Notes under the pieces: model-generated
Told to the model about the DNA's origin: nothing
Database searches by the model: none
What the model saw: the letters and a program-made list of their open reading frames with translations, nothing else
Part shown: positions 12,495 to 44,373 of the stretch, piece after piece
Layout: every line of letters begins with the position of its first letter
Position numbering within the stretch: the first letter of the stretch is position 1
Program-made: the position numbers and the translations under genes
Source of the DNA: Stellaceae bacterium
Lineage (GTDB): Bacteria; Pseudomonadota; Alphaproteobacteria; ATCC43930; CGMCC-115725
Reading direction: 5' to 3'
Length of the DNA stretch: 64,000 nt
Assembly (NCBI GenBank): GCA_035945115.1
Contig: DASZAN010000123.1
Location: forward strand, 28,073 to 92,072

Positions 12495-12503
12495 CGGCGG
12501 CAA

Positions 12504-13604
12504 ATGGGCTTCAATTGCGGCATTGTCGGCCTTCCCAATGTCGGGAAGAGCACACTCTTCAACGCGCTCACCGCGACGCAAGCGGCGGAGGCGGCGAACT
12601 ATCCCTTCTGCACGATCGAGCCCAATCTCGGCCGCGTCGCCGTTCCCGACGAGCGGCTCGAGGTCGCCGCCAAACTCGCGAAGTCGGCCAAGGTCATTGC
12701 GACGCAGCTTGAGTTCGTCGACATCGCGGGTCTCGTGCGCGGCGCCTCCCGCGGCGAAGGCCTGGGCAACCAGTTCTTGGGCCACATCCGCGCCGTCGAC
12801 GCGATCGCCCATGTGCTGCGCTGCTTCGAGGACCGCAACATCACTCATGTGGAAGGCGCGATCGATCCCATCCGCGACGCCGAGACGGTGGAGACGGAGC
12901 TCATGCTCGCCGATCTCGAGAGCCTCGAGCGGCGGCTCCAAGCGACGCAGAAGAAGGCGCGCGGCGCCGACAAGGAGGCGAAGGCGCAGGCGGCGGTCAT
13001 GGAAGCGGCGCTGGCGCGCTTGCGTGAGGGGAAGCCGGCGCGCGGCATGGCGCTCTCAGCCGAAGAGAGCGCGATTCTCAGGAGCTTCGAGCTGCTCTCG
13101 GCGAAGCCCGTGCTCTACATCGCCAATGTCGAGGAGAGCGCCGCGGCCAGCGGCAATGCGCAATCATCGCGCGTCGCCGAGTATGCGAAAGAGCGGAACG
13201 CCGAGAGCGTCGTCATTTCCGCCGCCATCGAAGCCGAGGTGGCGCATCTCGCCGATGAGAGCGAGAAGCGCGAATTCCTCGCCCATCTCGGCCTCGAGGA
13301 AGCAGGGCTCGCGCGCCTCATCCGTGCGGGCTATCGCCTCCTCGACCTCGTCACCTTCTTCACCGTCGGCCCCAAGGAAGCGCATGCCTGGACGGTGGCC
13401 AAAGGCACGAGAGCGCCGCAAGCCGCCGGCGCCATCCACACGGATTTCGAAAAAGGCTTCATCCGCGCGGAGGTGATCTCATACGACGATTTCGTCGCGA
13501 ACGGCGGCGAGCAAGGCGCCAAGGACGCCGGCAAGATGCGCCTCGAAGGCGCTGAGTATGTCGTGCAGGATGGCGACATCCTCTACGTGCGCTTCAATGT
13601 GTGA
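12504..13604 (+). CDS. ychF: redox-regulated ribosome-binding ATPase YchF
   Basis: GIVGLPNVGKSTLFNALT P-loop, the TGS domain at the C-terminus. Confidence 0.9.
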   Translation: MGFNCGIVGLPNVGKSTLFNALTATQAAEAANYPFCTIEPNLGRVAVPDERLEVAAKLAKSAKVIATQLEFVDIAGLVRGASRGEGLGNQFLGHIRAVDAIAHVLRCFEDRNITHVEGAIDPIRDAETVETELMLADLESLERRLQATQKKARGADKEAKAQAAVMEAALARLREGKPARGMALSAEESAILRSFELLSAKPVLYIANVEESAAASGNAQSSRVAEYAKERNAESVVISAAIEAEVAHLADESEKREFLAHLGLEEAGLARLIRAGYRLLDLVTFFTVGPKEAHAWTVAKGTRAPQAAGAIHTDFEKGFIRAEVISYDDFVANGGEQGAKDAGKMRLEGAEYVVQDGDILYVRFNV

Positions 13605-27479: not shown

Positions 27480-28298
27480 CTAAAGGATCTTCGAGAGAAA
27501 CGCCTGCGTCCGCTTTTGAACGGGGCTCAGGAAGAGGCGGTCGGGCGTGCCCTCTTCGACGATCCGGCCGTCGTCCATCATGACCACGCGATCGGCGACC
27601 TCGCGGGCAAAGCCCATCTCGTGCGACACCACGATCATGGTCATGCCCTCGCGGGCAAGCTCCCGCATCACCTCGAGCACCTCGCCGATCATTTCCGGAT
27701 CGAGCGCGCTGGTCGGCTCGTCGAACAGCATGAGACTCGGCTTCATGGCGAGCGCGCGCGCGATCGCGACGCGCTGTTGCTGACCGCCCGACAATTGCGC
27801 CGGATAGACATCGACCTTGTCGGATAGGCCGACGCGGGCGAGGAGGTCACGGCCGATTGCAACGGCCTCGCGCTCGGGGATGCCCAAGACATGGATCGGC
27901 GCCTCGATGACGTTGCCGAGGGCGGTCTTGTGGTGAAACAGGTTGAAGCGCTGGAAGACCATGCCGATTTCGCGCCGCTGCCGCGCGATGTTCCGCTCGC
28001 GGTCCTCCATCAAGCGGCCACGGCTTTCGCGATAGCCGATCAGGTGTCCGTTGACGAAGATGCGGCCGCTCTCGATCTTTTCGAGGTGGTTGAGACAGCG
28101 CACGAAGGTGGTCTTGCCGGACCCGGACGGGCCGATGATGACCACCACCTCGCCGCGCCGAACGGTGAGCGACACACCCTTCAAAACCTCGAGCTTTCCG
28201 TAGGATTTGCGCACCTCGACGGCGCGGACCACCTCCTCGCTCGCGGGCTCGGGGACGCCGCCGATCGACGATACAATATCCGCGCTGGCGCCGCTCAT
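27480..28298 (-). CDS. amino-acid ABC transporter ATP-binding protein
   Basis: Walker [10 protein letters not shown], signature [15 protein letters not shown], and Walker [13 protein letters not shown]. Confidence 0.9.
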
Positions 28299-36084: not shown

Positions 36085-37236
36085 TCACGCCGGCTCGGAT
36101 GCCTTGAGGCGTATGAGCTTGCTCAGGAGGGCGTCGAAGCCCTGACCCTCGCCGGCGTGGAGGTCGATCCGACCCACCTTCTCGACCAGCCGCTCGAGGC
36201 TCTCGAGCTCCTTGAGCCTGAGGAGAAGCGGGTTCTCCTCCATGAGCTTGGCGGTGTTGAGGAGCGAGCGCGTCGCCGCGGTCTCTTCCTGTCGGCGGAT
36301 CAAGTTGGCCTTGGCCATCCGCTCCGCCTCCACCACCTTGTTCACGAGCTCGCGGATCTCGCCGGGAAGGATCACATCCTTCACGCCGAGCTCAGTCACC
36401 TCGATGCCGGTCTCGACCAGACGCTCGCGCACATAGGCGCGCAGCTCCGCATCGAGCACGCTCTTGGCCGACAGCACCTCGTCGAGCGTGCGCGCCGCAA
36501 CTGCCTCGCGGATCGCGAACTGCACGAGCCGGTAGAGCCAGCCATCGACGTCGACGACCGCGCTCACCGCGCGCTCGGGATCGACGATCCGGCGAAGCGC
36601 CGTCAAGGTCACGCGCAGTGCGATGCGATCCTTGGTGAGCATCTCCTGCGCCGTGATCTCGACCGCCTGTGGCCGGAGATCGAGACGCTTCACCTCGACC
36701 TTGCGGTTGACCGACCAGTAGGCGTGCCGGCCAGGCGCGAGCCGCTCCACGAGCCGGCCCTCGACGTAGAGGAGGCCCGCCTCGTGGTTCTCGACCACCG
36801 TCTCGGCGAGATAGGGGTTACGCGCCCGCTCGACCAGCGCCAGATGCTGCGGTGCTACCTTCGGATCGCGTGCGACGTCGATGCGCTCGACCTCGACCGT
36901 GGTCGCGACCTTCCAGTAGGCGCGGAGCTGCCACGGGCCAATGAGCTGCGCTGGCCGACCGTCGAGGCTGATGATTGCGACCTCGTCGGCACGCGTCTCG
37001 ACCGCCGTGAAGAGCTCGAGCGCGATGTCCGGCCGCTCGGCCTTGATCACGGCGTAGCGCTCTGGCGGGAACTCGGTGCGCACGACCGGGAAGGTCTCGA
37101 CCTTGAGCTCGCCAAGCGGATCAAAGACGCGGTGACGGCCCGGCGGCAGCACGCGCTCGAGCCGACCGTTGCGCAGCAGAAACGCGCGCTCGCCGTCCTT
37201 AACGATCACCTGCAACACGACAAGGTACCTGGTCAT
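36085..37236 (-). CDS. SPFH/band-7 domain protein
   Basis: Start at MTRYLVVLQVIVKDGERAFLLRNG, then the SPFH core and a long coiled-coil tail. Confidence 0.7.
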   Translation of the reverse strand: MTRYLVVLQVIVKDGERAFLLRNGRLERVLPPGRHRVFDPLGELKVETFPVVRTEFPPERYAVIKAERPDIALELFTAVETRADEVAIISLDGRPAQLIGPWQLRAYWKVATTVEVERIDVARDPKVAPQHLALVERARNPYLAETVVENHEAGLLYVEGRLVERLAPGRHAYWSVNRKVEVKRLDLRPQAVEITAQEMLTKDRIALRVTLTALRRIVDPERAVSAVVDVDGWLYRLVQFAIREAVAARTLDEVLSAKSVLDAELRAYVRERLVETGIEVTELGVKDVILPGEIRELVNKVVEAERMAKANLIRRQEETAATRSLLNTAKLMEENPLLLRLKELESLERLVEKVGRIDLHAGEGQGFDALLSKLIRLKASEPA

Positions 37237-37562
37237 GACACTCTCCACACTTGGCTGCGCGACGGATTTCGCGCGGCTGGCTTCGGATCGAGGAGGGTGG
37301 GTTCCGGACGCGTCTTCCCGCGGGAGGCGGCGGGCCGGGGCTTGAGCCGCACGGGCGGCGGGCACACGTCCCCGCCGTCAGCTCAAGGCATGACGAGCGA
37401 AAGCGCTACCCGACGCCCGCGCGGGCGATATCCACCCCGGCGCAGGGCCGTTCCAACGGTGTCTGGTACGGGCAAGAGGCCTTTCGGCCAAACGACCGGA
37501 CCGCGACTGAAGCGCGCGTCCGGTCCCCCTCAGAGGTGTTCAGTTTTCCAGGCTGAACCGGC

Positions 37563-37636
37563 GCGTAGGAGCGGGAGTCGAACCCGCGACCCGATGCTTA
37601 AAGGGCATCTGCTCTAACCACCTGAGCTATCCTCGT
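37563..37636 (-). pseudogene. tRNA-Lys(UUU)-like gene with a 1-nt defect in the 5' acceptor strand
   Basis: The reverse complement folds as a tRNA (D arm gctc/gagc, anticodon loop CTTTAAG, T arm gcggg-ttcgact-cccgc). However, the 5' acceptor reads cgaggat where cgtagga is needed to pair with the 3' strand. Confidence 0.45.
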
Positions 37637-37639
37637 TTG

Positions 37640-37707
37640 TGCAACCGATCGGACTCGAACCGATGCCTCCGGGTTTCCCCGGCGCTCTTCCCTTGAGCTA
37701 CGATCGC
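37640..37707 (-). pseudogene. tRNA-like gene (Phe-GAA-like) with a truncated anticodon arm
   Basis: Good acceptor (gcgatcg/cggttgc with GU pairs), D arm and T arm are present. The anticodon region is only ccggg-gaaa-cccgg, 3 nt short. Confidence 0.4.
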
Positions 37708-38234
37708 GGCCTTCGTTCAGCGGAACACGAAACGCACAGAGTGCGATCGCGCCAGCCGGGACCCAACGAACCCGGACACGAAGCCGAGCGAAGGGAGCGC
37801 GCTTGTACATGAGTCGCAATCGGCGCACAAGGTGAAAAACGCGCACGACAATTGCTTTCTTTTTCGACGGTGAGAAATTTTCTCGCGACGAGGCCAAAAC
37901 GACCGCTCCATGAAATGTGCAAATGCGCCGTTCATGAAATTCTGTGCTGGAAATTCGAAGACCGTCTGCCGTTCTGAATTAGGAAAAGCCGCCCGATGAA
38001 AAAAATTTTTTGCGAAATGGATTGCAAGTGCCGCGTCGTCCGTTCATATCTAACGCCATGACACAGAGACTGAACATATCATTCGCCAGGACTGCCGCCA
38101 TGTTAGTGGCGACGCGGCCGTGGTATTGCGCGCGCCAATCGCGACCCGAACGTAAATTCGGGACGCGGCACGGCAGCAGCGACGGAGATTCAGCCGGGTG
38201 AGTGCACCCGCATCGACCGAAAGGTTGACTGAAC

Positions 38235-38270
38235 CCCGCCGCGCGCAAGCCCGAGCGGGGTTTTTCATTG
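38235..38270 (+). terminator. rho-independent terminator
   Basis: ccccgc-(15 nt)-gcgggg hairpin followed by TTTTT, sitting in a low-GC segment. Confidence 0.5.
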
Positions 38271-38399
38271 CGGTTTTTCAATGGGCCGACTTGTAGTCGT
38301 GTGGGCTCAGACCCACCTTTGCGCTCAAATTTGGGCGGGCTGGTTTCAAGCGGTCGGATCGAGAGGAGACAGCCATCTCCTCTCGTTCGTCAATTTTTC

Positions 38400-38470
38400 G
38401 GGCCGAGCGCTGGGCGCGGCTGATCCTTGCAAGATCGGAGCGCTGAGTTCGATTCTCAGTCGGTCCACCA
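38400..38470 (+). tRNA. tRNA-Ala(UGC)
   Basis: Acceptor gggccga/tcggtcc, anticodon stem-loop tgatc-CTTGCAA-gatcg, T arm ctgag-ttcgatt-ctcag, CCA encoded. The D arm is short. Confidence 0.6.
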
Positions 38471-38545
38471 GCCTTCGCTCGCTTCGCGAGCTACGGCTCG
38501 GCAAGCCAGGCTCGATTTGACCAGCTAAGCGAGCGAAGGCTGCCG
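38471..38545. repeat. long perfect hairpin (12-bp stem gccttcgctcgc / gcgagcgaaggc) directly after tRNA-Ala
   Basis: Inverted repeat read directly from the sequence. Confidence 0.6.
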
Positions 38546-38607
38546 CGCCGTAGCCCAAAGGGCGGAGGCGGGCTGCTGCCGTGAGCTACCAGAGCAACGA
38601 CATTGGC

Positions 38608-38847
38608 ATGACCTACGTCTATATTCTCCAAAGCATGCAACGGCTCGAGCGGTTTTACGTCGGGGTGACAGCCGACTTTAGATCTCGTCTTCGGAGGCAC
38701 AACGCGGGTGAAGTGTCGCATACGTCGAAATATACGCCTTGGGCGGTGAAGACCTATATCGCGTTTTCGGATGAGACGCAGGCCTATGCGTTCGAGAAAT
38801 ATCTCAAATCGCCGTCCGGAAGGGCCTTTGCGAAGAAGCGTCTTTGA
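38608..38847 (+). CDS. GIY-YIG nuclease family protein (YhbQ/Slx1-like, about 79 aa)
   Basis: MTYVYILQS...RFYVGVTADFRSRLRRHNAGEVSHTSKYTPWAV...FSDETQAYAFEKYLK is a textbook GIY-YIG core. Confidence 0.75.
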   Translation: MTYVYILQSMQRLERFYVGVTADFRSRLRRHNAGEVSHTSKYTPWAVKTYIAFSDETQAYAFEKYLKSPSGRAFAKKRL

Positions 38848-38890
38848 TCGAACGACAAGCCCAGGACAAAACTGGGCACTTACACCGCTG

Positions 38891-39352
38891 CTACTGCCAC
38901 GTTCGTATCTCGTGCAGCCGCGGATCACCCATGTAGATCGCGTCAATGAGCGCGAACACTTGCGGTGCAAGCGGTGTTCCGATGATCTCCGACCGCTTGA
39001 GCGCCGAGTCTGCGAGGTCGCCGTCAGAGGTCAGACGACCTTGAGCGTCAACAACCATGAACTGAGGCGATCCCTCGACAATTCTGTAGTCGAGCGCGAC
39101 GGCATAACGGTCCTGCTTTGTCGCGGAAGCTCCCCACTTTCCAAGTATCAAATCGAAACTTGCGCCGTGATCGGGACGTTGCTCCGCCCAGCCGACGAAG
39201 TACGCGGCCACTGCCGCGCCGCCCCTGTGGATGAGACCCCAGACGCGTTTGGTAGTCGAGCCGCAACAATCACAATGTCCATCGCTCGTGCCACTTTGCT
39301 CGACCTCGAAAGATCGCCAATCGACCGGCCCGTCATTTGGAAGCTCAGACAC
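38891..39352 (-). CDS. hypothetical protein (contains an HCDCCG Cys-rich motif)
   Basis: A 153-aa ORF in a lower-GC segment between the GIY-YIG gene and the tRNA array. No family recognised. Confidence 0.45.
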   Translation of the reverse strand: MSELPNDGPVDWRSFEVEQSGTSDGHCDCCGSTTKRVWGLIHRGGAAVAAYFVGWAEQRPDHGASFDLILGKWGASATKQDRYAVALDYRIVEGSPQFMVVDAQGRLTSDGDLADSALKRSEIIGTPLAPQVFALIDAIYMGDPRLHEIRTWQ

Positions 39353-39494
39353 TTAGCGCTTCGCAGCTAGCCGTTTATCACGTTGCGAGTATAGCTAACT
39401 TCGTGAAGTTAACAGACATCATTTCTGCGTCTGAGCGATCTCTTGGTCGGTATGGGCAGTTCGAAAATCCAGTGCCCAATTGGTCCACCAATTC

Positions 39495-39568
39495 GCGGGC
39501 ATAGCTCAACGGCAGAGCATTGCGTTGCCAACGCAAAGACGAGGGTTCGAGTCCCCCTGTCCGCTCCA
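39495..39568 (+). tRNA. tRNA-Gly(GCC)
   Basis: gcgggca...TTGCCAA...ggttcgagtcc...tgtccgc-t-CCA. Confidence 0.8.
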
Positions 39569-39572
39569 TTTC

Positions 39573-39667
39573 GGTTGTCGGCTCTGGTGAGCGGGTGCGC
39601 CTTATAAGCGCGCGAGAGCGGCTGGACGAGCTGCGACGGGTTGGTTCGATCCCAACGACAACCACCA
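39573..39667 (+). tRNA. type-II (long variable arm) tRNA, anticodon uncertain; loop CTTATAA would give UAU
   Basis: 95 nt. Acceptor ggttgtc/gacaacc, T arm gttgg-ttcgatc-ccaac, CCA. The anticodon stem tgcgc/gcgcg has the loop cttataa. Confidence 0.5.
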
Positions 39668-39671
39668 TTGC

Positions 39672-39743
39672 TGCGGGGTGGCACGGTGCCCGCGTCGGCT
39701 CATAACCGGCGTCGCGTCCGTTCGACTCGGACCTCCGCAACCA
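39672..39743 (+). tRNA. tRNA-Met/Ile2 (CAU) with a reduced D arm
   Basis: Only 72 nt including CCA. Anticodon stem-loop gtcgg-CTCATAA-ccggc and T arm gtccg-ttcgact-cggac. Confidence 0.6.
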
Positions 39744-39746
39744 CTT

Positions 39747-39819
39747 GCCTTTCTGGTGTAGATGGTCTGCACGCCTGTCTGAAGAACAGGAGGTCTCTGA
39801 TCGTTACAGAGGGAAGGCG
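39747..39819 (+). tRNA. tRNA-Phe(GAA)-like with a non-canonical T loop (ATCGTTA) and no CCA
   Basis: Acceptor gcctttc/ggaaggc, anticodon stem-loop cctgt-CTGAAGA-acagg. Confidence 0.45.
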
Positions 39820-39821
39820 CC

Positions 39822-39897
39822 GCGGCGCTTGTAGTTTGGTGACTGCCTTAGCCTTCCAAGCTAATGAGGGCGGGTTCGATTCCCCCGCGCCGCTCCA
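39822..39897 (+). tRNA. tRNA-Gly(UCC)
   Basis: Acceptor gcggcgc/gcgccgc, anticodon stem-loop ttagc-CTTCCAA-gctaa, CCA. Confidence 0.75.
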
Positions 39898-39904
39898 GTT
39901 TCAT

Positions 39905-39981
39905 TCCCAGCGGTCCCCATTGGCAGGGGAACGAGACTGTTAATCTCGTCGCTCCAGGTTCGAATCCTGGGCTGGGAGCCA
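39905..39981 (+). tRNA. tRNA-Asn(GUU)
   Basis: Acceptor tcccagc/gctggga, anticodon stem-loop cgaga-CTGTTAA-tctcg, T arm ccagg-ttcgaat-cctgg, CCA. Confidence 0.8.
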
Positions 39982-40056
39982 TTTAAGCCCGAGCTGAAGC
40001 CAGCCGCCCGGTCTCCAAAACCGCGGCGCGTGGGAGCGTTACCTACCGGGCGTGCC
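39982..40056 (+). other. degenerate tRNA-sized spacer (possible Trp-CCA-like anticodon hairpin cggt-CTCCAAA-accg)
   Basis: 75 nt between two tRNAs. No canonical T loop or acceptor pairing could be found. Confidence 0.2.
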
Positions 40057-40132
40057 AGTGCCGTGGCGGAGTGGTCATCGCCGGGGTCTGCAAAACCTCT
40101 CTATCTGGGTTCGATTCCCAGCGGCACTTCCA
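40057..40132 (+). tRNA. tRNA-Cys(GCA)
   Basis: Acceptor agtgccg/cggcact, anticodon stem-loop ggggt-CTGCAAA-acctc, T arm ctggg-ttcgatt-cccag, CCA. The first nucleotide overlaps the previous spacer's terminal A. Confidence 0.65.
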
Positions 40133-40133
40133 T

Positions 40134-40209
40134 GGTGGTCGTGGACCTCTGGCGAAGTCGGCGCGTCGTGACCGCGCTCAGGCGAGTTCGATTCTCGTCG
40201 GCCACCCCA
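40134..40209 (+). tRNA. tRNA-His(GUG) with an encoded G-1
   Basis: G-1 plus gtggtcg pairs with cggccac-C73. Anticodon stem-loop gcgcg-TCGTGAC-cgcgc; CCA. Confidence 0.75.
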
Positions 40210-40284
40210 GCCCGCATAGCACAGCAGCAGTGCAGCCGCCTTGTAAGCGGAAGGCCGTGGGTGCAAATCCTACTGCGGGCACCA
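40210..40284 (+). tRNA. tRNA-Tyr(GUA) with a SHORT variable arm (type I), T loop TGCAAAT
   Basis: Acceptor gcccgca/tgcgggc-A73, D arm gcac/gtgc, anticodon loop CTTGTAA, 75 nt. Confidence 0.55.
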
Positions 40285-40291
40285 GATTGAT

Positions 40292-40368
40292 GGCGGATTA
40301 CGGCGTGGTCGCCGCGGCCGGCTCTGACCCGGCTTGATTAGAGAGTTCGATTCTCTCGTCCGCTGCCA
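40292..40368 (+). tRNA. tRNA-Gln(CUG)
   Basis: Acceptor ggcggat/gtccgct (two GU pairs), anticodon stem-loop gccgg-CTCTGAC-ccggc, T arm gagag-ttcgatt-ctctc, CCA. Confidence 0.7.
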
Positions 40369-40370
40369 TG

Positions 40371-40442
40371 ACGCGGGGCCTCTAGCGAGGGCGCCGGCCT
40401 TTGAAGCCGGCCAGATCGGTGCGATCCCGGTACCCGCTGCCA
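40371..40442 (+). tRNA. tRNA-Gln(UUG)-like, with poorly paired acceptor and T loop TGCGATC
   Basis: Anticodon stem-loop ccggc-CTTTGAA-gccgg is perfect and CCA is present. The acceptor pairing could not be satisfied. Confidence 0.45.
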
Positions 40443-40447
40443 ATCAT

Positions 40448-40523
40448 GTCCCATTCGGCTACTGGCTAGGCCGCCACCCTCTCAAGGTGGAAAAGGCGGG
40501 ATCGAAACCCCCATGGGACACCA
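40448..40523 (+). tRNA. tRNA-Glu(CUC)
   Basis: Acceptor gtcccat/atgggac, anticodon stem-loop ccacc-CTCTCAA-ggtgg, CCA. Confidence 0.75.
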
Positions 40524-40527
40524 ATTC

Positions 40528-40604
40528 GCGCGCGTATCCCAACAGGCAGAGGAACAACGTTGAGAGCGTTGACAGTGCGCGTTCGAATCGCGCCGCGCGC
40601 ACCA
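40528..40604 (+). tRNA. tRNA-Leu(GAG) with a short (5-nt) variable arm
   Basis: Acceptor gcgcgcg/cgcgcgc-A73, anticodon stem-loop caacg-TTGAGAG-cgttg, T arm gcgcg-ttcgaat-cgcgc, 77 nt including CCA. Confidence 0.55.
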
Positions 40605-40606
40605 GA

Positions 40607-40684
40607 GGGCCGGTAGACCAATCGGTAGGAGTCATCGCGCTTAGAACGCGAGCAGTGTGGGTTCGAATCCCTCCCGGCCTACCA
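40607..40684 (+). tRNA. tRNA-Leu(UAG) with a short variable arm
   Basis: Acceptor gggccgg/ccggcct-A73, anticodon stem-loop tcgcg-CTTAGAA-cgcga, CCA. Confidence 0.55.
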
Positions 40685-40690
40685 TTTTAC

Positions 40691-40779
40691 GGAAGGTGCC
40701 GCTGAAAGGCCGGCAACTGGTCTTGAAAACCAGGGTAGCGTGATGAGCGCTAAGGGTTCGATTCCTTCACCTTCCGCCA
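40691..40779 (+). tRNA. tRNA-Ser(UGA), type II
   Basis: Acceptor ggaaggt/accttcc-G73, anticodon stem-loop ctggt-CTTGAAA-accag, a long variable arm, CCA. Confidence 0.8.
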
Positions 40780-40782
40780 TTT

Positions 40783-40870
40783 GGAGAGTCAATCGGCGAG
40801 GTCGCCGAGCGCGCCTGCTAAGCGCGGCGCCGTTCGCGTGGCCGGTGAGTTTCGATTACTCGGCTCTCCG
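40783..40870 (+). tRNA. tRNA-Ser(GCU), type II, no encoded CCA
   Basis: Acceptor ggagagt/gctctcc-G73, anticodon stem-loop cgcgc-CTGCTAA-gcgcg. Confidence 0.75.
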
Positions 40871-40872
40871 CC

Positions 40873-40946
40873 GCTCGTGTAGCTCAATGGCAGAGCAGCG
40901 CATTGGTATCGCGCCGATTGCGGTTCGATCCCGCACATGAGCTCCA
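40873..40946 (+). tRNA. tRNA-Thr(GGU)
   Basis: Acceptor gctcgtg/catgagc, D arm gctc-aatggca-gagc, anticodon loop TTGGTAT, T arm tgcgg-ttcgatc-ccgca, CCA. Confidence 0.8.
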
Positions 40947-40951
40947 GTTTC

Positions 40952-41044
40952 GGGAGACGCCAATAAGGTCGGGCTGGTGCCGACGCCGCGCTGTAAACGC
41001 GGTCCCGCACGGGCAAGAGGTTCGATTCCGTCCGTCTCCCACCA
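40952..41044 (+). tRNA. tRNA-Tyr(GUA), type II (canonical bacterial form)
   Basis: Acceptor gggagac/gtctccc-A73, anticodon stem-loop ccgcg-CTGTAAA-cgcgg, variable stem cccg/cggg, CCA. Confidence 0.65.
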
Positions 41045-41045
41045 T

Positions 41046-41118
41046 GGGCCTCTCGTCCAATGCAGGACACGCGCCTGATTAGCGTGGAATCGCAGTGCAA
41101 ATCTGCGGGGGCCTACCA
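41046..41118 (+). tRNA. tRNA-Ile(GAU), T loop TGCAAAT
   Basis: Acceptor gggcctc/ggggcct, D arm gtcc/ggac, anticodon loop CTGATTA, T arm cgcag-tgcaaat-ctgcg, CCA. Confidence 0.75.
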
Positions 41119-41124
41119 ATTCCG

Positions 41125-41199
41125 GGGTCGCTAACTCAACGGCAGAGTACCCGCCTCTTAAGCGGTGAGATCATGGTTCGAATCCATGGCGGCCCACCA
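41125..41199 (+). tRNA. tRNA-Lys(CUU)
   Basis: Acceptor gggtcgc/gcggccc, D arm actc/gagt, anticodon loop CTCTTAA, T arm catgg-ttcgaat-ccatg, CCA. Confidence 0.75.
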
Positions 41200-41251
41200 T
41201 TGCGCCGAGAGGCGCGGCATCGGCACAGGTCCGCGAGCAGCCGATGCACCC

Positions 41252-41326
41252 GCACTGTGAGCCATGTGGCCGAGGCGCTGCCCAGTCACGGCAGATAGAC
41301 GGGTTCGATCCCCGTACAGTGCGCCA
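41252..41326 (+). tRNA. tRNA-Asp(GUC) (anticodon loop CAGTCAC, A at position 33)
   Basis: Acceptor gcactgt/acagtgc-G73, anticodon stem ctgcc/ggcag, T arm acggg-ttcgatc-cccgt, CCA. Preceded by a 52-nt spacer containing two hairpins. Confidence 0.7.
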
Positions 41327-41333
41327 GTTTCGG

Positions 41334-41408
41334 CGGAGTGTAAGTCAGCAGCAGACGGCTTGCTTTGGAAGCAAGCAGACGGGGGTGCAAGTCCCTCCAC
41401 TCCGACCA
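41334..41408 (+). tRNA. tRNA-Pro(UGG), T loop TGCAAGT
   Basis: Acceptor cggagtg/cactccg, anticodon stem-loop cttgc-TTTGGAA-gcaag, CCA. Confidence 0.75.
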
Positions 41409-41411
41409 TTT

Positions 41412-41483
41412 GCCCTCGCCGCTGAGACGGAAGCGGGTTTCCTAAACCTGCGCAGCGCGGTTTGATTCCGCGCGGGGGCGCCA
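41412..41483 (+). tRNA. tRNA-Arg(CCU)
   Basis: Acceptor gccctcg/cgggggc, anticodon stem-loop cgggt-TTCCTAA-acctg, T arm cgcgg-tttgatt-ccgcg, CCA. Confidence 0.6.
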
Positions 41484-41484
41484 T

Positions 41485-41559
41485 GGGCGCTTAGTAGAGT
41501 GGTCATAACGGCTGGCCTACACCCAGCAGACGGTGGTTCGATTCCATCAGCGCCTACCA
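41485..41559 (+). tRNA. tRNA-Val(UAC) (anticodon loop CCTACAC)
   Basis: Acceptor gggcgct/agcgcct-A73, anticodon stem gctgg/ccagc, T arm ggtgg-ttcgatt-ccatc, CCA. Confidence 0.65.
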
Positions 41560-41562
41560 TTT

Positions 41563-41639
41563 TGCAGCGTTACGCTTCCGGTGAGGCGCCCCGCCTTTCA
41601 AGCGGGAGAGGCTCGGTTCGACTCCGGCACGCTGCACCA
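41563..41639 (+). tRNA. tRNA-Glu(UUC)
   Basis: Acceptor gcagcgt/acgctgc, anticodon stem-loop cccgc-CTTTCAA-gcggg, CCA. Confidence 0.75.
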
Positions 41640-41646
41640 ATTTCCT

Positions 41647-41718
41647 GGCCCACCCGCTGAGACGGACGCGGCGCTTCGAACGCCGCAATGCGGAGTTTGA
41701 TTCTCCGGTGGGCCCCCA
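41647..41718 (+). tRNA. tRNA-Arg(UCG)
   Basis: Acceptor ggcccac/gtgggcc, anticodon stem-loop cggcg-CTTCGAA-cgccg, T arm cggag-tttgatt-ctccg, CCA. Confidence 0.7.
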
Positions 41719-41719
41719 T

Positions 41720-41794
41720 GCGCACGCAGCTCGATGGACGAGCGCCGCTCTGCGAAGGCGGAGGCTGAAGGTTCGATTCCTTTCGTGCGCGCCA
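41720..41794 (+). tRNA. tRNA-Arg(GCG) (unusual anticodon; bacteria normally use ACG)
   Basis: Acceptor gcgcacg/cgtgcgc, D arm gctc-gatggac-gagc, anticodon stem-loop ccgct-CTGCGAA-ggcgg, CCA. Confidence 0.65.
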
Positions 41795-41799
41795 ATTCT

Positions 41800-41871
41800 G
41801 GTCACGTCCCGATGGATCGGGCATCCGCCTTCTAAGCGGGTTGAATGCGGGTTCGAATCCTGCCGTGACCG
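41800..41871 (+). tRNA. tRNA-Arg(UCU), no encoded CCA
   Basis: Acceptor ggtcacg/cgtgacc-G73, anticodon stem-loop tccgc-CTTCTAA-gcggg, T arm gcggg-ttcgaat-cctgc. Confidence 0.7.
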
Positions 41872-41873
41872 CC

Positions 41874-41951
41874 GCGCGACTAGCCCAATTGGCAGAGGCG
41901 GCTCGCTCAAAACGAGCAACGGTCTCGGTTCGAGTCCGAGGTCGCGCACCA
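41874..41951 (+). tRNA. tRNA-Leu(CAA) with a short variable arm
   Basis: Acceptor gcgcgac/gtcgcgc-A73, anticodon stem-loop gctcg-CTCAAAA-cgagc, T arm ctcgg-ttcgagt-ccgag, CCA. Confidence 0.6.
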
Positions 41952-41955
41952 CTGC

Positions 41956-42029
41956 GGGCGTATAGCTGGAAGGACAAGCTGCCGCCTTTTAAGCGGTTGA
42001 TGAGAGTTCGATTCTCTCTGCGCCCACCA
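41956..42029 (+). tRNA. tRNA-Lys(UUU)
   Basis: Acceptor gggcgta/tgcgccc-A73, anticodon stem-loop gccgc-CTTTTAA-gcggt, T arm gagag-ttcgatt-ctctc, CCA. Confidence 0.75.
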
Positions 42030-42034
42030 TTGCC

Positions 42035-42105
42035 GCTCCGGTCGTTCAACAGTAGGATGGCGCCCTCGTAGAGCGCAGATTTCGGTGCAACTCCGAACTG
42101 GAGCT
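42035..42105 (+). tRNA. tRNA-Thr(CGU), T loop TGCAACT, no CCA
   Basis: Acceptor gctccgg/ctggagc, anticodon stem-loop gcgcc-CTCGTAG-agcgc, T arm ttcgg-tgcaact-ccgaa. The last gene of the array. Confidence 0.55.
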
Positions 42106-42110
42106 CTTTC

Positions 42111-43733
42111 TCACGAGTTCCCCAGCACCGTCTCCGCGGCGACATAGCCCCAGGTCATGCACGGGCCGAGCGTCGTTCCGGCGCCGATGGCGCGGGTGCC
42201 GATCGGGTTCGCCATGGCGTTGCCGGCGGCGAGCAAGCCGGGAATGACGGTGTGGTCTTGGCGCAGCGCCTGCGCTCTGTTATTGGTGCGGACGCCGCCC
42301 TTGGTGCCGACGGTCATGAGATCGATGGCCATCGCGTAGAAGGGCGGCTGCTCGATCTTGCCGAGTGCTACGCCCGTCCGGCCCAGCTTGTAGTGCTCCC
42401 ACACGCTTTCGCCACGGTGAAAATCCTCGTCACGGCCCATCTCGCAGAAGCGGTTGAAGCGCTCGACCGTTGCTTTGAGGGTCGCCGCGGGAATGCCGAT
42501 GCGCCCGGCAATTTCCTCTAGGCTCGTTCCCTTGATGACCCAGCCCTTCTCATGCGACGCATACCAGCGGAAGGCCGCGCCGTGCCGCAGGTAGCGGCTG
42601 TCGGCGATGACATAGGCCGGCACATGCAGCAGCTCGCCCGAACTCGGATCGCGCCGGTCGAGCGCCTCGCCCAGATTGTAGGAGAGTTCGCTCACGAAGC
42701 GTCGGCCGTGGCGATCGACCAGGATCGCATGCGGCGCGGCTTGGAAGGTGGCGGGGATGCCGGAAGGCTGGCCTTCATAAGTGACCGGCAGCAGCGGGTA
42801 GATATTGGCTTGATCCATACGGTCGAGCCGCGCACCCGCGGCTTCGGCCATGCGCTGGCCATCGCCCTCGTTGCTGCGCGGACTGCCGATCCGCTGGAAG
42901 CGTCCGCCGAAATGACGCTCGACGAGCGCGGTATTCCACTCGAATCCGCCGGTGGCGAGAAGGACGCCGCGCCGTGCCCGGATCGTCACGGGTTTCCCGT
43001 CGCTGAGCCCCGTCACGCCGACGACGCCACCCGTGCGATCATCGAGCATGAGGCTTTGGGCGCGCGTCGCCAGCAGCAAGCGGCAGGATCGGTCGAGACA
43101 CGCCTTCAAGAGCCCGGCGACGAGCGCGTTTCCTTGGCCGATGCTATCGGTGATCCGCCGCCGCAAGAGAGCCGGAAGGAGTCGGAAGCCGGTTCGCACG
43201 GGGTGGTGATAGGGATCGAGCGCGAGCACCTCTTGATAGGTGAAGATGTGCGGCAGCGTCGACCGCCGGATCCTTTGCGCGTAAGGCCCCAAGATTTTGC
43301 GGCTAAGGAGACGAGGCGAGACCATGCGGCCCACCTTCTTGCCGCCGGCATACTCGGCCATTGGGTCGGGCTCGTTCGTCAAGGCGAAGCGAAGCGGCGT
43401 GTTCTGCTCGACGAACTCGAGCATGATGGGCGCGGTCGCGGCAAAGCGCCGCCAGAGCAAATCCTCGCTGTTGTGCCAACCCGGCGGCGCGGTGGCGCGC
43501 AGGTATTGCAGCGCCTCGTCCGGGCTGTCGCTCAAGCCCGCGGCACGGGCGTGGTGGTTCGCCGGGATCCAGATGCCACCGCCCGACATCGCGCTCGCGC
43601 CGCCGGCAAGCGCCGCTTTTTCGAGGATGGTGACACTGAGGCCGCCGGACGAGGCCCTGAGCGCCGCCGTGAGCCCGGCGCAACCCGAGCCGATCACGAG
43701 AAAATCGGTCTCGATTCGGTTGGGATCGCTCAT
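42111..43733 (-). CDS. FAD-binding dehydrogenase (fumarate reductase/succinate dehydrogenase flavoprotein-like, KstD-like)
   Basis: Start at MSDPNRIETDFLVIGSGCAGLTAAL (GxGxxG). A C-terminal FAD_binding_2 capping motif is present. Confidence 0.75.
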   Translation of the reverse strand: MSDPNRIETDFLVIGSGCAGLTAALRASSGGLSVTILEKAALAGGASAMSGGGIWIPANHHARAAGLSDSPDEALQYLRATAPPGWHNSEDLLWRRFAATAPIMLEFVEQNTPLRFALTNEPDPMAEYAGGKKVGRMVSPRLLSRKILGPYAQRIRRSTLPHIFTYQEVLALDPYHHPVRTGFRLLPALLRRRITDSIGQGNALVAGLLKACLDRSCRLLLATRAQSLMLDDRTGGVVGVTGLSDGKPVTIRARRGVLLATGGFEWNTALVERHFGGRFQRIGSPRSNEGDGQRMAEAAGARLDRMDQANIYPLLPVTYEGQPSGIPATFQAAPHAILVDRHGRRFVSELSYNLGEALDRRDPSSGELLHVPAYVIADSRYLRHGAAFRWYASHEKGWVIKGTSLEEIAGRIGIPAATLKATVERFNRFCEMGRDEDFHRGESVWEHYKLGRTGVALGKIEQPPFYAMAIDLMTVGTKGGVRTNNRAQALRQDHTVIPGLLAAGNAMANPIGTRAIGAGTTLGPCMTWGYVAAETVLGNS

Positions 43734-43878
43734 CCGATCAACCCGAGGACGTTGCGTCGCGCGTAGAGCCGGTCCCCATACTCCCGGAGATCGGCTGAGA
43801 GACGCAAGCCATCGCTTGCCGTTACTATGGCGAGGCCACGACCTCTGTCGCCGTTTCACCTCGCTCGACCATGGGGAG

Positions 43879-44373
43879 ATGGACATGCCCTCGACAACGC
43901 GGCGCGATCGCAGCGCGCTTGAAGCTTCCCTTTCCGCCGGCACGGTCGTCGTCGCCTCCACCGGCGTTGGCAAGTTCCAGCAACTCATGTTGGACGGACG
44001 CCACGCGCTCCATGGCGATGAGCCGCGCTCGGCCGGCGGCGATGATACCGGGCCAGGTCCCTACGAGCTGCTGCTGATGGCGCTCGGCAGCTGTACGTCG
44101 ATGACGGTCCATCTCTATGCCGCGCGCAAGAAATGGCCGGTGGAGCAGGTCGTCGTCCGGCTTCGCCAGGAACGCGTTCATGCGCGGGACTGCGCTGATT
44201 GCGAGCAGCCGGGCGCGATGGTCCATCGCATCGAGAAGACGATCGAGCTCGTCGGCGCGCTCGACGAGGCGCAACGACAGCGCTTGCTCGAGATTGCCGA
44301 CCATTGTCCGGTTCACCGCACCTTGACAGCCAAGATCGAAATCGCGAGCGCCCTCGCCCCCACCGGCGACTGA
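43879..44373 (+). CDS. OsmC/Ohr family peroxiredoxin-like protein
   Basis: PYELLLMALGSCTSMTV ... ADHCPVHRTL gives the paired Cys motifs of the OsmC family. Confidence 0.75.
   Translation: MDMPSTTRRDRSALEASLSAGTVVVASTGVGKFQQLMLDGRHALHGDEPRSAGGDDTGPGPYELLLMALGSCTSMTVHLYAARKKWPVEQVVVRLRQERVHARDCADCEQPGAMVHRIEKTIELVGALDEAQRQRLLEIADHCPVHRTLTAKIEIASALAPTGD

Follow-up and report, generated by a model that had tools for sequence, protein, structure and literature searches.

The tRNA array and its leucine tRNA genes

The locus considered here is a long tRNA array found in a genome assembly of an alphaproteobacterium (Stellaceae bacterium, assembly GCA_035945115.1, contig DASZAN010000123.1), and the main subject are three tRNA-Leu genes of this array that possess a short variable loop (type I architecture) in place of the long variable arm (type II architecture). 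The whole stretch analyzed, 64 kb in length and referred to as the window, spans positions 28,073 to 92,072 of the contig, and all the coordinates given below are positions within the window. ARAGORN recognizes 27 tRNA genes in the window, 26 of them on the plus strand between 38400 and 42106, with 25 of these 26 packed into the densest, 2.6-kb part of the array (39495-42106). Many of the spacers in the array measure 0-10 nt. Most of these calls are confirmed by Rfam, which adds a few irregular tRNAs, and further irregular ones can be recognized by eye. The array thus corresponds to the definition of a tRNA array unit, or long tRNA array (L-array; Santamaria-Gomez et al., 2021), of at least 20 tRNA genes that are co-oriented and closely spaced, at a density of at least two per kb (Tran et al., 2016; PMC4758250).

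The three genes in question are all called by ARAGORN on the plus strand: tRNA-Leu(GAG) at 40528-40604, tRNA-Leu(UAG) at 40607-40684, and tRNA-Leu(CAA) at 41874-41951. Their scores with the Rfam tRNA model (48.6, 53.7, and 50.7 bits, respectively) exceed the RF00005 gathering score of 29 bits by 20-25 bits. Their variable loops, ACAGU in Leu(GAG), GCAGU in Leu(UAG), and AACGGU in Leu(CAA), are 5, 5, and 6 nt in length and contain no hairpin, and all three genes possess A73 followed by an encoded CCA. These genes had been described as short-armed, with A73, in an earlier note made from the sequence alone, and ARAGORN, Rfam, and a check of the pairing agree with that description. The acceptor stem of 7 bp and the T stem of 5 bp are both unambiguous, the potential eighth acceptor pair being mismatched, as expected for U8. 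The anticodon stem is of 5 bp and closes a 7-nt loop (UUGAGAG for GAG, CUUAGAA for UAG, and CUCAAAA for CAA). The D stem is of 3 bp, with an 11-nt loop CAACAGGCAGA in Leu(GAG) and an unusual 12-nt loop CAAUCGGUAGGA in Leu(UAG), and the D arm of Leu(CAA), GCC-CAAUUGGCAGA-GGC, is the same as that of Leu(CAA) in the trn operon of Anabaena. In all three, the Leu-type D arm is kept (A14, A15, and G18G19), along with U8 and U48. Each gene measures only 74-75 nt without CCA, so an alternative fold with a long arm, which the earlier note had named as a possible refutation, is impossible for lack of room. Folding of single sequences by minimum free energy produced cloverleaves for some of the genes only, with weak z-scores, and is not considered here as evidence in either direction.

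Pairwise identity among the three genes amounts to only 63-67%, and none of them possesses G3-U70, G-1, or G73 combined with a long arm. Leu(UAG) deviates in having a G1-U72 pair and a U50-U64 mismatch in the T stem. However, this T stem (GTGGG/CCCTC), with the mismatch included, recurs in related genes of three other loci (L113, L104, and L148), arguing that it is not a product of random decay.

Leucine identity

When aligned with the Escherichia coli genes leuV, leuW, and leuZ, and with a type II tRNA-Leu(CAG) gene from another array (L086), the three genes match over their full length, and the sole systematic difference is the absence of 8-10 nt from the variable region, which correspond to the hairpin. 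A variable arm of at least 10 nt with a stem-loop, the canonical mark of type II tRNAs, is thus not present in these genes. The positions invariant among the aligned type I and type II sequences are A14, G18, G19, U48 (the last nucleotide of the variable region), G53-T54-T55-C56, A58, and A73. The alignment to tRNAs of both types had been proposed in the earlier note as a check, and the end-to-end match to E. coli tRNA-Leu, save for the arm, indicates that these are leucine tRNAs minus the arm rather than other tRNAs with a leucine anticodon.

Distribution and conservation of short-arm leucine tRNA genes

The architecture can be described by the pattern CCAAYNGGYAGR-N29-34-GTTCRA, which has three matches in the 64-kb window, these being the three Leu genes, against 0.00 expected from shuffled sequences. 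This pattern was scanned over bacterial genome contigs and, separately, over viral contigs, yielding at least 120 loci in each case, and the counts that follow are biased, as the pattern itself selects for the short-arm architecture. ARAGORN recognizes at least 111 short-arm Leu genes in the loci from the genome scan, a count that also takes in the three genes of the window and three further loci (L001-L003). Among the matches listed, most are tRNA-Leu of 74-78 nt, the rest being tRNA-Trp, tRNA-Asn, or tRNA-Thr, and by a hand count approximately 68 of the loci listed (L004-L123) are single, stand-alone UAA, CAA, or UAG genes in the chromosomes of Actinomycetota of many orders. Examples are found in Gordonia, Nocardia, Mycobacterium, Rhodococcus, Corynebacterium, Bifidobacterium, Amycolatopsis, and Acidimicrobiia. 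Further short-arm Leu genes among the matches listed belong to Planctomycetota, Poribacteria, and a metagenome-assembled genome (MAG) of Rickettsiales, and one Planctomycetota MAG encodes three of them (CAG, UAA, and GAG) in a row (L008:3550-3794).

Long arrays that include short-arm Leu genes are present in Asanoa, Kribbella, and Actinokineospora, as well as in Polyangiaceae and Myxococcus, and in MAGs of Thermoguttaceae (35 tRNAs), Hyphomicrobiaceae (21 tRNAs), and Acidobacteriota (34 tRNAs, with all four Leu genes short). The arrays from the genome scan are those of Actinomycetota, Planctomycetota, Myxococcota, Acidobacteriota, and Hyphomicrobiaceae, and overall, such arrays were found in six phyla other than Actinomycetota. 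The sampled arrays carrying short-arm Leu genes keep the long arms of Ser and Tyr, and only Leu has lost the arm. The window array resembles other arrays in gene order, with short Leu genes next to long Ser and Tyr genes. Short-arm Leu is not a feature of all L-arrays, some of which keep long or intermediate arms: the plasmid arrays of Pseudomonas FeN3W (L135) and Acidiphilium (L136) possess Leu genes of 79-82 nt, and the array of plasmid pACHL01 mixes both forms. Of the viral loci listed, 108 of 120 possess at least one short-arm Leu gene, with at least 160 short genes in total versus 24 long ones, and the loci brought in by non-Leu matches only possess 16 short and 13 long Leu genes. In the GenBank phages Mwe-JY26 and PE09, the short-arm genes are annotated as tRNA-Leu.

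No sampled sequence exceeds 83% identity to the Leu genes of the window, and two of these genes have their nearest relatives in phages or arrays. Leu(UAG) shares 83% identity with tRNA-Leu(UAG) of the Microcystis phage Mwe-JY26 and 81% with the copy in the Acidobacteriota MAG array L113, and Leu(CAA) shares 80% identity with its counterpart in the 40-tRNA array on pACHL01. Taken together, these observations suggest that the type I Leu architecture is commonplace among Actinomycetota, as it is in the tRNA clusters of phages and mobile genetic elements of many phyla.

Conservation within this family was analyzed for 108 distinct short-arm Leu sequences from the genome loci listed. Stem positions are paired in 98.3% of cases, with two to six pair types at 19 of the 20 stem pairs, and U8 is present in all 108 sequences, U48 in 106, A73 in 107, and a variable loop of 5 nt in 98, U8, U48, A73, and the stems not being part of the search pattern. 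Judging from these patterns, the short-arm Leu family is under selection, with compensatory changes in the stems.

Comparison with known systems

One example of a bacterial type I tRNA-Leu is well documented, in Streptomyces coelicolor, in which a single tRNA-Leu(CAA) is type I and the four other isoacceptors are type II (Fan, Huang, Ji, and Wang, 2019, NAR 47:6369; PMC6614811). This tRNA is leucylated by the single leucyl-tRNA synthetase (LeuRS) of that species, ScoLeuRS, as well as by human mitochondrial LeuRS, and attempts at deleting its gene failed; both U8-A14 and the loop length of 5 nt matter for its charging, and type II tRNA-Leu(UAA) deprived of the variable-arm stem is charged unharmed (PMC6614811). 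Whether a LeuRS accepts the type I substrate depends on its leucine-specific domain, and ScoLeuRS does not charge human mitochondrial tRNA-Leu(UUR) (PMC6614811). According to the literature we have found, “almost all” bacterial tRNA-Leu are type II, and ScoLeuRS is the sole LeuRS from a prokaryote for which charging of both types has been demonstrated. Another example is a short variable loop in tRNA-Leu(TAG) of a Mycobacterium tRNA cluster, noted in passing (Behra et al., 2019; PMC6582537). The earlier note had considered short-arm tRNA-Leu to be structurally non-bacterial and of unclear identity, and this view is not supported, given the leucylation of the S. coelicolor tRNA, the Mycobacterium case, the wide spread of such genes in our scans, and the Leu-type D arm, U8, A14, A15, U48, and A73 in the window genes themselves.

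The likeness to the S. coelicolor tRNA-Leu(CAA) extends to a leucine anticodon, a loop of approximately 5 nt without a hairpin, the 7/5 arrangement (7-bp acceptor stem and 5-bp T stem), U8-A14, A73 followed by CCA, and co-occurrence with long-armed Ser and Tyr tRNAs. Closely matching homologs among the sampled actinobacterial genes share the D arm GCC-CAAYNGGCAGA-GGC with the Leu genes of the window. In contrast to the case of S. coelicolor, the window possesses three type I isoacceptors (GAG, UAG, and CAA), at most 78% identical to any sampled actinobacterial copy, and these are supernumerary copies in a mobile-type alphaproteobacterial array rather than one housekeeping gene.

An array that is similar in many respects is the trn operon on plasmid delta of Anabaena (Nostoc) PCC 7120, reportedly described by Puerto-Galan and Vioque in 2012. 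Like the window array, it is a one-strand array, of approximately 26 tRNA genes, and its Leu(CAA) has the identical D arm. It contains four Leu genes (CAA, UAG, GAG, and UAA), each of them short-armed, Tyr and Ser(GCU) are long-armed, and one short Ser(CGA) is also called by ARAGORN. Homing-type endonuclease genes are associated with both, an HNH gene adjoining the Anabaena array and a GIY-YIG gene being located within the window array. The differences are the chromosomal rather than plasmid location of the window array, its GC content (63% versus low GC), and a gene order that is not conserved. For the Anabaena operon, 23 of 26 tRNAs are aminoacylated in vivo, the other three being undetected pseudogenes (Santamaria-Gomez et al., 2021; PMC8421152). 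As four of the genes are short-arm Leu genes, at least one short-arm tRNA-Leu must be charged in Anabaena, a non-actinobacterium. The short arms are not discussed in the papers on Anabaena and other tRNA arrays that we consulted (among them PMC8421152).

HNH endonuclease genes accompany the arrays of Anabaena, Mycobacterium, and pACHL01, and for the mycobacterial clusters or array units (Morgado and Vicente, 2018, PMC5966550; Behra et al., 2019) this association has been published (PMC6582537). These clusters differ from the window array in belonging to another host phylum and in that just one Leu isoacceptor has been remarked on. The phage clusters (Mwe-JY26, the Pseudomonas phages PE09 and phiPsa315, and IMG/VR contigs) encode tRNA-Leu of 77-78 nt with the same D arm, a variable loop of 5 nt, and A73, and Leu(UAG) of Mwe-JY26 shares the unusual 12-nt D loop with Leu(UAG) of the window, but no phage structural or integrase genes surround the window array. 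Animal mitochondrial type I tRNA-Leu also possess a short variable loop and A73. However, the Leu genes of the window keep the bacterial consensus of the D and T loops (G18G19 and T54-psi55-C56), with no sign of common descent with the mitochondrial tRNAs.

Other tRNA genes of the array

The earlier note had also reported a short-arm tRNA-Tyr(GUA), at 40210-40284 on the plus strand. This gene proved to be an ordinary type I tRNA-Thr(UGU), scoring 61.2 bits in Rfam: the stem CCGC/GCGG, confirmed by a pairing check, closes the loop C-U-U-G-U-A-A, in which ARAGORN recognizes the anticodon UGU, and the gene is 79-83% identical by BLAST to annotated tRNA-Thr genes of Proteus, Klebsiella, and Bacillus phages. 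It possesses G1-C72, C2-G71, and A73. The reading as Tyr was rejected, as GUA would require a one-base shift of register that destroys the anticodon stem.

The two Ser genes and a gene with a GUA anticodon, taken in the earlier note for the second Tyr gene, indeed have long variable regions, as had been claimed, but they are not quite canonical: 8-bp acceptor stems are possible in all three, and the Rfam match is weak for the GUA gene and lacking for Ser(GCU). Ser(UGA), at 40691-40779 on the plus strand (ARAGORN; 41.2 bits with the Rfam tRNA-Sec model; pairing check), is best drawn with an 8-bp acceptor stem and a 4-bp T stem (8/4 structure), and it has G73. Ser(GCU), at 40783-40872 on the plus strand, was recognized by its anticodon and D arm, read by eye, and by a pairing check; it also has G73, along with a 6-bp D stem and a tetraloop (TCGGCG-AGGT-CGCCGA), and it is compatible with the 8/4 structure. 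No Rfam model matches it at E<=1, and ARAGORN, at a relaxed threshold, calls this sequence Ala(CGC) in another register. Both Ser genes resemble the (8/4) tRNA-Ser from alphaproteobacterial phage tRNA clusters (Mukai et al., 2017; PMC5389517). The gene with the GUA (Tyr) anticodon, at 40952-41044 on the plus strand, is an irregular tRNA with a long variable region, read from the sequence and its fold and matched only by the Rfam tRNA-Sec model (27.4 bits); an 8-bp acceptor stem GGGAGACG/CGUCUCCC is possible, the T stem is poor, and A73 and CCA are present. ARAGORN does not call it on the plus strand, at the relaxed threshold included.

Another irregular gene, at 39573-39667 on the plus strand, encodes a 95-nt allo-tRNA-like molecule with a UAU anticodon (ARAGORN; 33.6 bits with the tRNA-Sec model; fold z = -2.67; pairing check). 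Its variable hairpin is long, its anticodon stem measures 6 bp, and its D arm reads GCUC-UGGU-GAGC; A73 and CCA are present, and the sequence can be drawn with an acceptor stem of 8 bp and a T stem of 4 bp. In these respects, it resembles the (8/4) allo-tRNA(UAU) class, with a difference in position 73, where most allo-tRNAs possess G or U; UAU allo-tRNAs that have been tested were inactive in translation (Mukai et al., 2017; PMC5389517). The Acidobacteriota MAG array contains a 93-nt long-arm tRNA(UAU) as well (L113:6349-6441), of the ordinary 7/5 arrangement and with the D arm GCUCAACUGGUAGAGC. As the two differ in design, long-armed UAU tRNAs recur in arrays in at least two designs. Still another sequence, at 41563-41640 on the plus strand, is a tRNA with a Sec-like D arm of a 6-bp stem and a 4-nt loop (CGCUUC-CGGU-GAGGCG), scoring 44.9 bits with the tRNA-Sec model; ARAGORN gives it an 8-nt anticodon loop (“tcaa”), and a 7-bp acceptor starting from 41565 leads to UUC (Glu), with A73 and CCA.

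Four degenerate-looking tRNAs were recognized by eye on the plus strand, in spacers that separate well-supported tRNA genes: Trp(CCA) at 39985-40057, Gln(UUG) at 40373-40438, Arg(CCU) at 41409-41484, and Arg(UCG) at 41647-41718. Rfam offers no support at E<=10 for the Trp and the two Arg sequences, and Gln(UUG) scores only 20.9 bits, so all four were downgraded to tRNA-like sequences.

Genomic surroundings of the array

The array is flanked by genes for a slipin (SPFH; 36085-37365, minus strand) and an FAD oxidoreductase (42111-43988, minus strand). The window also contains a gene for YchF (12495-13604) and other housekeeping and metabolic genes, showing that it is chromosomal, and the closest named homologs of YchF belong to Stellaceae (Rhodospirillales, Alphaproteobacteria), at 81-83% identity. 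Soil metagenome contigs that encode a slipin 91% identical to that of the window share DNA with it (approximately 86% identity) up to position 37838, after which they diverge. The shared block takes in the slipin gene and two tRNA-like genes on the minus strand, and at that position the related contigs lack the array. The surrounding synteny is rearranged in these relatives, so the comparison provides only the left homology break at 37838 rather than a clean empty site. The two tRNA-like genes (37567-37707, minus strand), located between the slipin gene and the array and thus within the block conserved with the array-less relatives, are unusual themselves: one is truncated (Rfam model positions 4-67), and the other scores 54 bits despite a short GAAA-type loop replacing the anticodon loop.

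Between the tRNA-Ala and tRNA-Gly genes, the array contains a segment of approximately 1 kb (38457-39490). It includes an open reading frame (ORF) of 88 amino acids with a GIY-YIG nuclease domain (38581-38847, plus strand; Pfam PF01541, E = 7.9e-14) and an ORF of 153 amino acids with no family match (38891-39352, minus strand). The segment is flanked by a 14-nt direct repeat, CAGTCGGTCCACCA at 38457-38470 and CAATTGGTCCACCA at 39477-39490, the first copy of which is the 3' end of tRNA-Ala, and it looks like a small mobile cassette that has targeted a tRNA 3' end. PHROGs returned no match for the ORFs at 37.9-39.4 kb. No integrase, transposase, or phage structural genes were found around the array, and the GIY-YIG gene inside it is the only mobility gene recognized by Pfam, with none in the flanks. 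Approximately 115 nt upstream of the first plus-strand tRNA gene (Ala, 38400), at 38259-38283, a 12-nt sequence is directly repeated in tandem (GGTTTTTCATTG-c-GGTTTTTCAATG). The arrangement is reminiscent of the promoter of the Anabaena trn operon, with its tandem operator repeats of 9 nt, but a match of two copies may be due to chance.

Proposed function and alternative explanations

For the three genes, the structure, the Leu-type identity nucleotides, the affiliation with a conserved family, and the location in an array are established. We interpret them as type I (short-variable-loop) leucine tRNAs that are a lineage-typical part of a long tRNA array acquired horizontally, and we place the probability of this interpretation at about 0.75. 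The array would have been acquired by the chromosome of a Stellaceae-like alphaproteobacterium and would be transcribed as a unit under some condition, by analogy with Anabaena, in which array transcription is linked to translational stress (PMC8421152). The Leu transcripts would then be processed and leucylated by LeuRS, and they would serve, like the tRNAs of other L-arrays, as supernumerary isodecoders, in this case for CUN and UUG codons. Each would in essence be a canonical tRNA-Leu minus the variable-arm hairpin, retaining the features thought to matter for LeuRS (U8-A14, A15/U48, G18G19 within a D loop of 11-12 nt closed by a 3-bp D stem, the T loop, and A73). Bacterial tyrosyl-tRNA synthetase (TyrRS) relies on the long variable arm. 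Seryl-tRNA synthetase (SerRS) relies on this arm as well, and LeuRS can do without its hairpin (PMC6614811); such a difference in the use of the arm as an identity element would account for Ser and Tyr tRNAs keeping it and Leu tRNAs losing it.

A number of observations weigh against this interpretation. LeuRS of E. coli and of S. purpurogeneiscleroticus cannot leucylate the Streptomyces type I tRNA-Leu (PMC6614811), and by analogy with the E. coli enzyme, LeuRS of the proteobacterial host may fail on type I tRNA-Leu. L-arrays are usually silent (PMC8421152), and our scan for promoters and terminators showed no enrichment over shuffled sequences. The variable loop of Leu(CAA) is of 6 nt versus the usual 5 nt of the family, the loop length having mattered in the experiments of Fan et al. 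(2019), and the G1-U72 pair and the U-U mismatch of Leu(UAG) must be counted here as well, along with the several irregular or degenerate tRNA-like sequences in the same array and the bias of the distribution counts.

Some of this evidence could also be accommodated if the Leu genes were non-functional relics, that is, pseudogenes that have lost the arm by deletion in a decaying, silent array, considering that three of the 26 Anabaena genes are pseudogenes (PMC8421152), that truncated or degenerate tRNA-like pieces are found at 37567-37707, 41409-41484, and 41647-41718, and that Leu(UAG) has the one T-stem mismatch. We consider such decay unlikely: in three independent genes of only 63-67% identity, each of the four stems is intact and no identity or tertiary nucleotide is missing, the mismatch itself recurs in relatives, the Rfam scores are well above the threshold, and the same architecture is maintained, with compensatory changes, in 108 distinct genomic sequences and at least 160 viral genes. 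The failure of E. coli LeuRS on the Streptomyces tRNA and the mapping of acceptance to the leucine-specific domain (PMC6614811) would also agree with the Leu genes being uncharged or mischarged, acting as decoys, regulators, or mistranslators, if the host LeuRS rejects the type I form or another synthetase takes it. The array does contain the allo-tRNA-like UAU gene and the 8/4 Ser genes, Leu-anticodon allo-tRNAs place Ser at Leu codons in E. coli (Mukai et al., 2017; PMC5389517), and non-canonical roles of array tRNAs have been left open (Santamaria-Gomez et al., 2021; PMC8421152). However, the Leu-type D arm, A15/U48, and A73 are present in these genes with no obvious determinant for another synthetase, at least one homologous short-arm tRNA-Leu is aminoacylated in Anabaena, and the wide spread in phages of non-actinobacteria, such as Pseudomonas phage PE09 and Microcystis phage Mwe-JY26, suggests acceptance of this form by many LeuRS enzymes, so this possibility, to which nothing in the sequence points, appears improbable.

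The loss of the arm could, alternatively, be a means of counter-defense, with tRNA-Leu of phages or mobile elements escaping nucleases or toxins that recognize type II tRNAs and still being chargeable. tRNA arrays have been discussed as possible anti-defense cargo (PMC12803027), the viral loci listed contain more short than long Leu genes, even if the search pattern requires the short arm, and Leu, the only isotype to have lost the arm in the sampled short-arm arrays, would be alone among the type II isotypes in having a synthetase that can do without it. This scenario is speculative and we regard it as very improbable, as no defense gene or tRNA-Leu-specific nuclease has been identified here, housekeeping genes of Actinomycetota share the architecture, meaning that a phage context is not required, and some arrays keep the long arms (L135 and L136). 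We are also doubtful of a broader proposal, in which the short-arm Leu genes would form a mobile lineage across phages and L-arrays and the arm loss would be adaptive, through escape from factors recognizing type II tRNAs or through uncoupling from host control, the tRNAs perhaps serving as unleucylated decoys or regulators in the presence of an E. coli-type LeuRS. None of the three rival explanations, that is, relics, uncharged or mischarged tRNAs, and counter-defense, is favored by the sequence.

Significance

In conclusion, bacterial type I tRNA-Leu is already known, and the window, with its type I leucine tRNA genes in an L-array, is an ordinary further example that needs no unusual explanation. 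In the literature we have found, type I tRNA-Leu of bacteria figures as a rarity of Streptomyces, and our scans point to a much broader occurrence; short-arm Leu genes appear to be far more common than the one paper dedicated to them implies. This raises the question of the breadth of LeuRS enzymes that accept armless tRNA-Leu. The finding corrects the assumption that bacterial tRNA-Leu is always type II, and it curbs the over-calling of similar genes.

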